From a virus (taxonomy: Duplodnaviria; Heunggongvirae; Uroviricota; Caudoviricetes), in the IMG/VR virus record IMGVR_UViG_2671180743_000009: a stretch of DNA of 8,376 bases. One strand, written 5' to 3'. Below the pieces are notes generated by a model. It was given only the letters and a program-made list of their open reading frames with translations. It was not told the origin of the DNA and made no database searches. A program made the translations under genes and the position numbers. Positions 643 to 991 of the stretch are shown piece after piece; within the stretch, counting starts at the first letter, position 1, and the number at the start of each line of letters is the position of its first letter.

Positions 643-717
643 TGGAGCGGGCAGCGGGAATCGAACCCGCATCATCAGCTTGGAAGGCTGAGGTAATAGC
701 CATTATACGATGCCCGC
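643..717 (-). tRNA. tRNA-Gly, anticodon UCC
   Basis: Reverse complement GCGGGCATCGTATAATGGCTATTACCTCAGCCTTCCAAGCTGATGATGCGGGTTCGATTCCCGCTGCCCGCTCCA folds as a 75-nt cloverleaf with anticodon loop CTTCCAA and an encoded CCA end. From memory it looks identical or near-identical to E. coli glyT. Confidence 0.85.
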
Positions 718-720
718 ATA

Positions 721-796
721 TGGTGCCGACTACCGGAATCGAACTGGTGACCTACTGATTACAAGTCAGTTGCTCTGCCTGCTGAGCTAAGTCGGC
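721..796 (-). tRNA. tRNA-Thr, anticodon UGU
   Basis: Reverse complement GCCGACTTAGCTCAGCAGGCAGAGCAACTGACTTGTAATCAGTAGGTCACCAGTTCGATTCCGGTAGTCGGCACCA. It has a 7-bp acceptor stem, D stem GCTC/GAGC, anticodon stem ACTGA/TCAGT with loop CTTGTAA, a T arm with one A-C mismatch, and an encoded CCA. It is not the host thrU sequence as I recall it. Confidence 0.8.
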
Positions 797-798
797 GC

Positions 799-875
799 TG
801 GCCCACCACCGAGGACTCGAACCTCGCACCGTCAACTTAGAAGGTTGATGCTCTATCCGGATGAGCTAGTGGTGG
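799..875 (-). tRNA. tRNA-Arg, anticodon UCU
   Basis: Reverse complement CCACCACTAGCTCATCCGGATAGAGCATCAACCTTCTAAGTTGACGGTGCGAGGTTCGAGTCCTCGGTGGTGGGCCA. All four stems are Watson-Crick, the anticodon loop is CTTCTAA, and CCA is encoded. The molecule starts with an unusual C1-G72 pair. Confidence 0.75.
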
Positions 876-876
876 T

Positions 877-953
877 TGGTGGCCCTTGCTGGACTTGAAC
901 CAGCGACCTGGCGATTATGAGTCGCTCGCTCTGACCAACTGAGCTAAAGGGCC
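877..953 (-). tRNA. tRNA-Ile2, anticodon CAU (lysidine type, ileX/ileZ-like)
   Basis: Reverse complement GGCCCTTTAGCTCAGTTGGTCAGAGCGAGCGACTCATAATCGCCAGGTCGCTGGTTCAAGTCCAGCAAGGGCCACCA. Anticodon loop is CTCATAA. Acceptor, anticodon and T-arm segments resemble E. coli ileX from memory rather than elongator or initiator tRNA-Met. Confidence 0.75.
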
Positions 954-962
954 GGAGGCAGA

Positions 963-991
963 ATAATAACCATATGTCATCACATCTGCAA
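963..991 (-). promoter_or_regulatory. Candidate sigma-70 promoter for the tRNA array: -35 TTGCAG, 17-bp spacer, -10 TATTAT
   Basis: Read on the minus strand, TTGCAG (plus 986-991) is followed after 17 bp by TATTAT (plus 963-968). The predicted start falls about 3 nt before the 5' end of tRNA-Ile2 at 953. Confidence 0.35.

Follow-up and report, generated by a model that had tools for sequence, protein, structure and literature searches.

The window analyzed here, a stretch of phage DNA of 8,376 nucleotides, carries a cassette of four tRNA genes that is a real, ordinary prophage tRNA gene cluster in the usual slot of lambda-like phages. The array is a mobile cassette that a lambdoid prophage of E. 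coli/Shigella carries in the leader of its late genes, with Q and its terminator on one side and the lysis genes on the other. We consider it probable, with appreciable reserve, that this mobile mosaic cassette is transcribed as one unit and supplies four tRNA species whose codons the prophage over-uses.

Gene content and layout of the cassette

ARAGORN and the Rfam tRNA model RF00005 agreed on four tRNA genes within positions 643-953, all on the minus strand and with intact cloverleaves, at RF00005 scores of 56.4-70.5 bits against a gathering score of 29. Read along that strand, these are tRNA-Ile2 (anticodon CAU; 953-877; 70.5 bits; named tRNA-Ile by PGAP), tRNA-Arg (UCU, codons AGA and AGG; 875-799; 56.4 bits), tRNA-Thr (UGU, codon ACA; 796-721; 69.8 bits) and tRNA-Gly (UCC, codons GGA and GGG; 717-643; 64.9 bits). 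A 3' CCA can be read from the sequence of each gene, and the spacers in this order are 1, 2 and 3 nt. The RefSeq annotation of an identical array already lists Ile-Arg-Thr-Gly.

A preliminary description of this DNA had proposed these four isotypes and anticodons, a spacing of 1-3 nt and the reading of an A-ending codon by every anticodon, and all of this agrees with the calls above; the covariance-model check that it suggested confirmed the isotypes (56-70 bits against 29). The array had been placed at 643-991, a span that does contain the four genes, but the minus strand went unstated and 954-991 is a non-tRNA stretch containing a promoter-like element. Each of the four anticodons pairs with an A-ending codon. 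In a textbook species list for K-12, U34 or lysidine-34 is found in 13 of 40 host tRNA species, and the probability of drawing only such species in four random picks is p ~0.008.

Identity and mosaic origin of the four tRNAs

The first tRNA is of the Ile2 type and is expected to read AUA through lysidine at C34. It resembles ileY (92%) and ileX (90%) more than metT (70%) or metZ (62%), and its acceptor stem carries C4:G69 and C5:G68, as do ileX and ileY, where metT has U4:A69 and A5:U68. The pairs 4:69 and 5:68 are major identity elements for E. coli TilS (PMC11947777). Its identity to ileZ of Stx phages is 96%. The anticodon loop, CUCAUAA, is the same as in ileX/ileY, and differences from these host genes fall at positions 26, 27, 43 and 44.

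The identity of the Arg(UCU) tRNA is 86% to the Lys(UUU) tRNA of sister arrays, 83% to argN (UCG) of Stx phages and 75% to the host argU. The low value for argU agrees with its earlier description as phage-specific, and orthology to argU was not supported, the argN scaffold and the sister Lys tRNA being closer. The elements by which ArgRS recognizes its tRNAs are C35 in the anticodon and A20 in the D loop. Both can be read from the sequence, with C35 present and the D loop AUCCGGAUA placing an A at position 20, as can an acceptor stem of 7 bp. The anticodon loop CUUCUAA is that of argU, and the anticodon stem is entirely unlike it.

The Gly tRNA is identical to K-12 glyT over all 75 positions (75/75), as the preliminary description had suggested. 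The Thr tRNA, which had been taken for phage-specific, proved to be the host thrU with two changes: 74 of 76 positions are identical, both differences are U-to-C in the D arm, and the whole anticodon arm matches. The 3-nt spacer between them, TAT, consists of the base 3' of thrU and the two bases 5' of glyT in K-12, which shows that thrU and glyT were captured together from the host thrU-tyrU-glyT operon; the junction would be the 3-nt scar that a deletion of tyrU leaves. From host thrU-tyrU-glyT-thrT, the two U34 members alone, thrU and glyT, were retained and fused. Judged by these identities, the array is a mosaic of a phage ileZ/argN-like pair and a host thrU/glyT pair, in line with the mosaic origin suspected earlier.

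Transcription signals and neighboring genes

Directly upstream of the array, on the minus strand, lies a late antiterminator Q-type gene of the DUF1133 family (1143..1697; Pfam DUF1133, 357 bits; Phage_antitermQ, 29.4 bits against a cutoff of 26), which in the identical annotated locus is the last early gene before the tRNAs. The order there is Q, tRNAs, holin/lysozyme/spanin and then morphogenesis genes. Downstream of the array, late protein genes begin with a class II holin, whose 5' end occupies 1..63 of the window on the minus strand (ATG at 63-61), as identified by its match to an annotated holin start. A hairpin found just upstream of the holin in FDAARGOS_944 does not map to 3-30 of the window, since the window lacks about 97 nt there and its holin ATG is at 63-61.

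A sigma-70-type promoter of the cassette, TTGCAG-17-TATTAT, is predicted at 963..992 on the minus strand from a consensus scan, which reported the match as TTTGCA-18-TATTAT with 9 of 12 matching positions, and from conservation. Its -10 hexamer ends 9 nt before the 5' end of tRNA-Ile2, and Stx ileZ is preceded by TTGCAA-17-TATTAT at the same offset. Among 26 distinct upstream sequences, TTGCA...TATnnT is kept in register in 22, and the mean major-base frequency is 0.87 in the -35 and 0.93 in the -10 hexamer, compared with 0.73 in the spacer and 0.58 further upstream. The element thus has the 16-18 bp spacing and the hexamers conserved among homologues that mark a putative sigma-70 promoter, and the promoter postulated in the preliminary description is borne out by its conservation across sister arrays. 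Homology of this phage region to the sequence upstream of the host ileX/ileY was not evident.

Further upstream, folding revealed an intrinsic terminator with a GC hairpin and a run of seven U at 1042..1070 on the minus strand (-18.7 kcal/mol, z = -4.3; 0 of 200 shuffles fold as well), which is likely tR'. The consensus terminator scan gave no call at 1070-1042, and the hairpin was confirmed by folding. Sister loci have equivalent upstream hairpins with different stem and loop sequences, and 35 of the 45 distinct loci have a hairpin with a T-run at a distance of 40-180 nt upstream of Ile2. A candidate Q-dependent late promoter pR', TTGCTT-17-TTCAAT, was read from the sequence at 1125..1153 on the minus strand and was not called by the consensus promoter scan; RMDEC332, with the same Q family, retains it as TTGCAT-17-TTCAAT. 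This candidate at 1153-1125 is a weak one, seen in only two related sequences. On the other side of the array, about 260 nt downstream of tRNA-Gly, a scan found a terminator-like hairpin with a T-run (365..384, minus strand). It is kept in ETEC1730 with a changed stem sequence and is the probable end of the promoter-driven tRNA transcript.

These signals suggest how the cassette may be expressed. Transcription from the cassette's own sigma-70 promoter would begin 2-3 nt ahead of tRNA-Ile2 and yield a single precursor of the four tRNAs, and after induction RNA polymerase modified by Q and coming from pR' would read through the upstream terminator into the cassette. RNase P cuts and 3' exonuclease trimming should suffice for release of the tRNAs, because CCA is encoded and the spacers are only 1-3 nt long. 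Lysidine would be formed at C34 of the first tRNA by the host TilS.

Mobility and distribution

The cassette is regarded as mobile because the same array, together with the same upstream sequence from the terminator T-run onward, follows Q genes of three unrelated families. What varies with the Q family is the stretch from the Q stop to the hairpin, and everything downstream is shared. The Arg(UCU) form is rare and was found in 16 of 5,426 complete E. coli genomes; the sister form, in which the second gene is Lys(UUU) with C33, was found in about 798 of the same genomes.

Some copies have decayed. In 5 loci the second gene is a degenerate 73-74 nt, and in RMDEC332 the Gly gene has been mutated to UAC and its acceptor end is broken. 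Decay of this kind, together with the similar codon usage of phages that carry different arrays (described below), would suit a neutral passenger, produced by recombination and carried along in an intergenic position that tolerates it, with no measurable contribution. We regard this as very unlikely, given that 14 independent loci of the 130 surveyed retain exactly this four-gene allele, that the cloverleaves and CCA ends are intact in the four genes, that the promoter hexamers are more conserved than their surroundings, and that just two U34 tRNAs were kept of the captured host operon.

Codon usage and proposed function of the cassette

The codons read by the array are enriched in the prophage. 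Comparison of 10,470 prophage codons with 18,434 host codons, the latter from a 50-kb K-12 sample plus 12 flanking genes rather than from a whole genome, gave enrichments of 4.9x for AGA, 3.3x for AUA, 2.2x for ACA and 1.8x for GGA (each p < 1e-6), which correspond to ranks 2, 3, 6 and 8 of 61 codons. At the level of tRNA demand, the four species rank 2, 3, 5 and 7 among 40 when ordered by demand ratio; ordered by excess demand per host gene copy, they rank 1, 2, 3 and 9. The pattern is not one of a general bias towards NNA codons, as these overall are enriched only 1.14x and CAA, UUA, GUA, CUA and GAA are depleted. AGG, CGG, CGA and UCA are also strongly enriched in the prophage and lie outside the coverage of the array, except for AGG through wobble by Arg(UCU). 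A run at 6328-6366 that reads as poly-Ser on the plus strand had been considered as a coding-strand AGA run; it is (GAGGAA)n, encoding poly-Glu, and is irrelevant to the Arg tRNA. The expectation in the preliminary description of AUA, AGA, ACA and GGA enrichment was upheld for the prophage as a whole, but the cargo genes that it named show no special enrichment (queH has zero AUA and zero AGA), and the bias belongs to the prophage at large.

Through the cassette, the phage would boost the supply of four tRNA species that have one or two host gene copies each and that decode AUA, AGA(/AGG), ACA and GGA(/GGG), codons over-represented 1.8-4.9 times in prophage genes; phage genes, and possibly also other AT-rich acquired genes, would then be translated faster. 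Codon supply is the best-supported function of the array on present sequence comparisons, and it is not proven, because sister phages with other array compositions share the same codon bias. Usage of AGA, AUA, ACA and GGA is similar in phage DNA flanking Arg-type, Lys-type and Thr-Gly-only arrays, with AGA medians of 9.4, 7.0 and 9.0 per 1000, respectively (Arg-type against Lys-type, p = 0.12). The relation of AGA and AAA usage to Arg-type and Lys-type arrays shows a weak trend in the expected direction that is significant for AGG alone, the single codon that clearly differs by array type (p = 0.006). AUA and AGA are used equally in phages without the Ile2 and Arg genes, and therefore these tRNAs are not required for the codon bias.

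The beneficiary of such a supply might also be mainly the host. A lysogen that expresses the cassette constitutively from its own promoter would gain a larger pool of minor tRNAs for AT-rich acquired virulence genes, a form of lysogenic conversion that is compatible with codon supply to the phage and not exclusive of it. The conserved promoter is independent of the Q type, and each of the 10 E. coli genomes with the identical Arg tRNA has 2-5 copies of it; S. flexneri SFBU1023 and E. coli ECMA0423 each have two Arg-type arrays and one Lys-type array. In FDAARGOS_944, moreover, the effector gene ipaHb stands at the end of the prophage, and in the cargo formed by ipaH and dedA there are 21.9 AUA and 15.5 AGA codons per 1000. 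The multi-copy state, however, may merely reflect the many related prophages in these lineages, and the position in the late operon is that expected of a function serving the phage, so we hold a primary role in conversion to be improbable.

The common sister array counts against codon supply as well: its Lys(UUU) tRNA reads the abundant codon AAA and has six host gene copies, and rare-codon supply does not explain this gene. In a counter-defence role, the cassette could replace or outlast host tRNAs cut by tRNA-targeting nucleases during infection or induction; the nucleases considered were anticodon nucleases, PARIS AriB, retron effectors, colicins and contact-dependent toxins. The tRNA-Lys of T5 neutralizes PARIS, whose AriB cleaves the anticodon stem of host tRNA-Lys at 40/41 (PMC11464382), phage tRNAs neutralize retron effectors (PMC11555353), and evasion of nucleases through changes in the anticodon loop has been proposed (PMC10264068). 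The Lys(UUU) of the sister arrays, a classic nuclease target, sits on the same foreign scaffold as the Arg tRNA of the window and has the unusual C33. In the window itself, the Arg anticodon stem differs entirely from that of its host counterpart and Ile2 differs at 27:43, but the Thr and Gly stems are the same as in the host. Additionally, the anticodon loops of all four tRNAs equal those of their host counterparts, which does not fit evasion by loop variants, and as the anticodon arms of Gly (100% identical to glyT) and Thr (identical to thrU in this arm) are host-like, at least half of the array cannot be resistant variants. No nuclease is known to us that would attack these four tRNAs as a set, and the codon enrichment is fitted by the supply model, which leaves counter-defence an unlikely account of the array.

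A broader proposal combines several of these observations. The second-gene scaffold carries UCG in Stx phages, UCU here and UUU with the unusual C33 in about 800 E. coli genomes. The array might be one allele of a mobile, self-promoted cassette in which the second gene changes its decoding by anticodon swaps on a single scaffold, and which, at several copies per genome in Shigella/EIEC-type lineages, constitutively remodels the minor-tRNA pool of the lysogen for AT-rich virulence genes, or else supplies tRNA bodies unrecognized by host or competitor nucleases. We offer this as a speculative and rather doubtful reading.

As tRNA genes downstream of Q have long been known in lambdoid phages, the existence of the array changes little. 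Its interest is that of a clear base-level example in which a phage captured part of a host tRNA operon and kept the two members whose codons it over-uses. One scaffold with three anticodons in homologous arrays also constitutes a natural series for weighing codon supply against nuclease evasion as the selecting force. Several copies in Shigella/EIEC-type genomes could alter the dosage of the tRNAs for AUA, AGA, ACA and GGA, which acquired virulence genes use frequently.

Comparison with known systems

The preliminary description had set this array apart from ileZ-argN-argO of Stx phages. Gene content does differ from the reference used here (Stx2a_F349, AP012530), but the two are not unrelated. 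The Stx array likewise follows Q and a short terminator and lies ahead of cargo and lysis genes; its ileZ and argN are the 96% and 83% matches noted above for the first two genes of the window, the second of which also shares the unusual C1-G72 start with argN, and the same promoter-like element precedes the Stx array at the same offset. The Stx array reads Ile2(CAU)-Arg(UCG)-Arg(UCU), whereas in the window the second anticodon is UCU, argO is absent with the host-derived Thr(UGU)-Gly(UCC) pair in its place, the genes number four instead of three, and no toxin cargo lies downstream. Within the literature collection searched, nothing usable came up on ileZ/argN/argO or on the four-isotype combination.

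The K-12 thrU-tyrU-glyT-thrT-tufB operon is matched in the Thr gene, the Gly gene and the retained junction flanks. In contrast to the operon, the window lacks tyrU, the long spacer that follows it and thrT, joins thrU to glyT by 3 nt, and holds this pair in a prophage, behind Ile2 and Arg genes. Further relatives are the sister cassettes Ile2-Lys(UUU)-Thr-Gly and Thr-Gly in prophages of E. coli, Shigella, E. albertii, E. ruysiae and Citrobacter, which share the Thr-TAT-Gly junction, the Ile2 lineage, the promoter and the 1-2-3 nt spacing, and differ in a second gene that has UUU with C33 or is absent.

Just downstream of Q, tRNA genes are likewise found in SfI, Sf6, ST64T, PS3 and phage 21, and SfI has Asn GUU and Thr UGU tRNAs, the latter matched by an ACA bias (PMC3636060). 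Position and proposed role are the same as here; the gene sets differ, and the array of the window is not described in that work. The clusters of T4 and T5 resemble the array in their closely spaced tRNA genes and polycistronic precursors, and the debate about their role likewise concerns codon supply and protection from nucleases (PMC10264068, PMC11464382). These phages, however, are virulent and carry many more tRNAs that have diverged from those of the host, whereas two of the four tRNAs in the prophage cassette are identical or nearly identical to host genes.

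Composition and prophage context of the tRNA array

Four tRNA genes were identified in the window by ARAGORN and the Rfam tRNA model, all on the minus strand: a tRNA with anticodon CAU (953-877), tRNA-Arg(UCU) (875-799), tRNA-Thr(UGU) (796-721) and tRNA-Gly(UCC) (717-643). Rfam scores were 56-70 bits (gathering score, 29); as read from the sequence, all four genes encode the CCA end and are separated by spacers of 1, 2 and 3 nt. The preliminary description had placed the array at 643-991 and gave no strand; the tRNAs extend to 953, and the final 38 bases (954-991) are a promoter-like region rather than tRNA. 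The array is a well-known class of feature and is already annotated, as the same 401 bases in E. coli FDAARGOS_944 carry tRNA-Ile, tRNA-Arg, tRNA-Thr and tRNA-Gly from the NCBI pipeline.

The window corresponds to the early-right arm of a lambdoid prophage in which rightward transcription uses the minus strand; on that strand the genes run in the order repressor and cro-like pair, Rac-like replication genes, queH, hok/sok, DUF1367, YbcO and the gene at 1143-1697. This last gene (minus strand) is Q-type, as it matches DUF1133, scores above the Phage_antitermQ cutoff and carries the annotation Q in related phages. A class II holin gene (ATG at 63-61, minus strand, compared with the annotated locus) follows the tRNAs. 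The hok/sok type I toxin-antitoxin locus (3159-3484, minus strand) lies in the nin region, where the sok RNA (3484-3309) scored 117 bits with Rfam RF01794 and hokD is annotated in an identical locus. The replication (O-like) gene (5980-6778, minus strand) consists of two ORFs in the window versus one intact 263-aa gene in FDAARGOS_944; a shifted frame within a run of A or an error in sequencing may account for this. The gene's (GAGGAA)n poly-Glu repeat (6328-6366, 6.5 copies in the window) is longer than in FDAARGOS_944. The FDAARGOS_944 prophage is flanked by ybhA and pgl; its late region is of the contractile-tail type, and ipaHb, a type III effector gene (L007:5761-7587, in that genome), stands at its end. 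Its ipaHb and dedA cargo contains 21.9 AUA and 15.5 AGA per 1000 codons, above the phage genes themselves.

Identity and origin of the tRNA genes

The CAU tRNA is 96% identical to ileZ of Stx phages, 92% to K-12 ileY and 90% to ileX, compared with 70% for elongator metT and 62% for initiator metZ. Its anticodon loop is that of ileX and ileY, and it has the acceptor pairs C4:G69 and C5:G68, positions that are major TilS identity elements in E. coli (PMC11947777). These features confirm its earlier assignment as an Ile2 gene, whose product should read AUA after the expected conversion of C34 to lysidine.

Half of the array was captured from the host. The Gly gene is identical to host glyT (75/75), as previously noted, and the Thr gene, which had been considered phage-specific, is rather host thrU (74/76) with two U-to-C changes, both in the D arm. 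The Thr-Gly spacer, TAT, equals the base after thrU plus the two bases before glyT in K-12, which shows that the two genes derive from the thrU-tyrU-glyT-thrT operon of the host through removal of tyrU with its spacer and loss of thrT. The two members retained are the only ones in that operon with U34. The altered D arm of the Thr gene reads GCAGGCAGAGC and resembles that of Stx argO (GCAGGACAGAGC), also third in its array; all four combinations of the differing bases are found among sister arrays (Ile2-Lys(UUU)-Thr-Gly or Thr-Gly alone, in related prophages), and the likeness could be a gene conversion patch or simple mutation.

The Arg gene is indeed phage-specific, being only 75% identical to host argU and 83% to Stx argN (UCG). 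It is 86% identical to the Lys(UUU) gene at the equivalent place in sister arrays; A20 and C35 are retained and the acceptor stem is perfect. The second gene is one scaffold bearing different anticodons from phage to phage. The Lys(UUU) gene of the sister arrays (e.g., L004:1595-1671 and L005:1607-1683, both outside the window) is built on the argN-type scaffold. U33 is near-universal in tRNAs; in this Lys tRNA the anticodon loop is CCUUUAA, and C33 is constant though position 32 varies. Its anticodon stem departs from that of host tRNA-Lys at sites that include 40/41, the point of cleavage by PARIS AriB (PMC11464382), and this Lys tRNA may resist nucleases.

Rescue of infection by phage tRNAs is documented for PARIS (PMC11464382) and for retron effectors (PMC11555353), and in the window's array the Arg and Ile2 tRNAs, only these two, have foreign anticodon stems. 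Counter-defence against host tRNA-targeting nucleases nevertheless seems an improbable explanation for the array, given that all four anticodon loops equal those of the host, the Gly gene is the host gene and the Thr tRNA is host-identical through the anticodon arm.

Codon demand

Codon usage in the annotated FDAARGOS_944 prophage genes (10,470 codons) was compared with that of a host set made up of 12 genes flanking the prophage and a 50-kb core region of K-12 (18,434 codons together). All four codons were enriched (p < 1e-6 for each): AGA at 7.3 versus 1.5 per 1000 (4.9x, rank 2/61), AUA at 11.1 versus 3.4 (3.3x, rank 3/61), ACA at 13.8 versus 6.2 (2.2x, rank 6/61) and GGA at 14.0 versus 7.6 (1.8x, rank 8/61). 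In the window's own genes the four occur at 9-13 per 1000. The cargo genes named in the preliminary description do not stand out; queH contains neither AUA nor AGA. Among 40 host tRNA species, the four in the array ranked 2, 3, 5 and 7 by demand ratio; when excess demand was divided by host gene copy number (textbook values for K-12), the ranks were 1, 2, 3 and 9. A general rule favouring A-ending codons was rejected, since NNA codons as a class were enriched only 1.14x and CAA, UUA, GUA, CUA and GAA were depleted, so that the A ending common to the four reflects which codons the prophage over-uses.

If supply drove the choice of second gene, AGA should be higher in Arg-form than in Lys-form phages. 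In crude ORF calls on the DNA that flanks 16 Arg-type, 36 Lys-type and 41 Thr-Gly-only loci, which are non-independent, median AGA was 9.4, 7.0 and 9.0 per 1000, respectively (Arg- versus Lys-type, p = 0.12), and AUA, ACA and GGA did not differ between array types. With the same crude, non-independent data, AGG was 7.3 per 1000 in Arg-type versus 4.5 in Lys-type loci (p = 0.006), and AAA and AAG were each slightly lower in Arg-type loci. The codon bias is common to these phages whatever tRNAs they carry, which is compatible with codon supply and not proof of it.

The largest absolute codon excesses of prophage over host were for AAU and GAU, codons decoded by queuosine-modified tRNAs. The queH gene (3542-4207, minus strand; Pfam 221 bits) encodes epoxyqueuosine reductase, the enzyme that completes queuosine synthesis on tRNA, and could give the phage a second, modification-based means of tuning decoding.

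Transcription signals

Upstream of the array, a GC hairpin followed by seven U (1070-1042, minus strand) folds at -18.7 kcal/mol (z = -4.3). In 35 of 45 distinct upstream regions, a hairpin and T-run precede Ile2 by 40-180 nt. In three Arg-type loci (the window, a second FDAARGOS_944 copy and E. coli RMDEC332), the stretch from T-run to tRNA is nearly identical, the segment from Q stop codon to hairpin varies with Q family, and each locus, like the Lys-type ETEC1730 locus, has its own hairpin version. Because each Q protein works solely on its cognate promoter, the late promoter pR' would lie in this variable Q-proximal segment, where TTGCTT-17-TTCAAT (1153-1125, minus strand) is a weak candidate, and the hairpin would be tR'.

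The sigma-70-like promoter noted directly upstream of the tRNAs corresponds to TTGCAG-17-TATTAT (991-963, minus strand), an element common to all arrays and the predicted Q-independent promoter of the cassette. Its hexamers keep their spacing and distance to the tRNA over 26 distinct upstream sequences, with major-base frequencies of 0.87 (-35) and 0.93 (-10), compared with 0.73 in the spacer and 0.58 farther upstream. Stx phages have a like order, in which Q is followed by TTGACA with a short terminator and TTGCAA-17-TATTAT abutting ileZ. A terminator-like hairpin downstream (384-365, minus strand), kept in ETEC1730 with an altered stem, probably ends the promoter-driven transcript. Some 97 nt upstream of the FDAARGOS_944 holin gene, including a hairpin and T-run, are absent from the window (window 64-100 versus L001:20900-21037), so that the two prophages differ in terminator number between tRNAs and lysis genes.

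Distribution and relation to known arrays

The window's array form was found in about 10 complete E. coli genomes (at least 98% identity and 90% query coverage), and arrays covering at least 80% of the query in 582 of 5,426, most annotated Ile-Lys-Thr-Gly. The four-gene Arg(UCU) form was absent from the phage collection, the nearest records having the Lys form (~94% identity). An exact search for the Thr-TAT-Gly junction recovered the wider family in more than 120 viral contigs. S. flexneri SFBU1023 and E. coli ECMA0423 each had three sites, and E. albertii, E. ruysiae and Citrobacter braakii had one apiece; a further match, on a 423-base contig of a myxobacterial assembly, is probably contamination. 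By ARAGORN, the 130 junction loci comprised Thr-Gly alone (~55), Ile2-Lys(UUU)-Thr-Gly (~44), Ile2-Arg(UCU)-Thr-Gly (18) and a few decayed or altered arrays. In RMDEC332, the Gly gene (L006:1784-1855) has anticodon UAC (called Val), A38G and a one-base deletion breaking the acceptor end; this copy is either decaying or misassembled. Among IMG/VR loci (L066, L088, L089 and the like), two have anticodon UUU in place of UGU on the thrU scaffold, and five have a shortened, degenerate second gene of 73-74 nt, called undetermined or Leu(UAA) by ARAGORN.

The same array lies downstream of three different Q gene families, which indicates that it moves as a cassette. All four exact window tRNA sequences occur together in 14 of the 130 loci; the window's Arg gene is present in 16 of 5,426 complete E. 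coli genomes, ten of which have 2-5 identical copies each, and the Lys form in ~798. Neutral carriage is unlikely in view of the intact tRNA structures, the recurring exact allele and the conserved promoter. A benefit to the host in the lysogen is plausible, considering the predicted Q-independent promoter, the presence of several copies in one genome and the richness of the ipaH cargo in AUA and AGA.

Altogether, the preliminary observation was correct and its main interpretation broadly right, and we grade the importance of the array as low to moderate. What is new is the Ile2-Arg(UCU)-Thr-Gly composition, for which our literature search found no published description, together with the base-level evidence for host-operon capture and the change of anticodon between phages on one second-gene scaffold. 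The array occupies the same Q-to-lysis slot as ileZ-argN-argO and stx in Stx phages, a slot that also holds tRNA genes in SfI, Sf6, ST64T, PS3 and phage 21 (PMC3636060).
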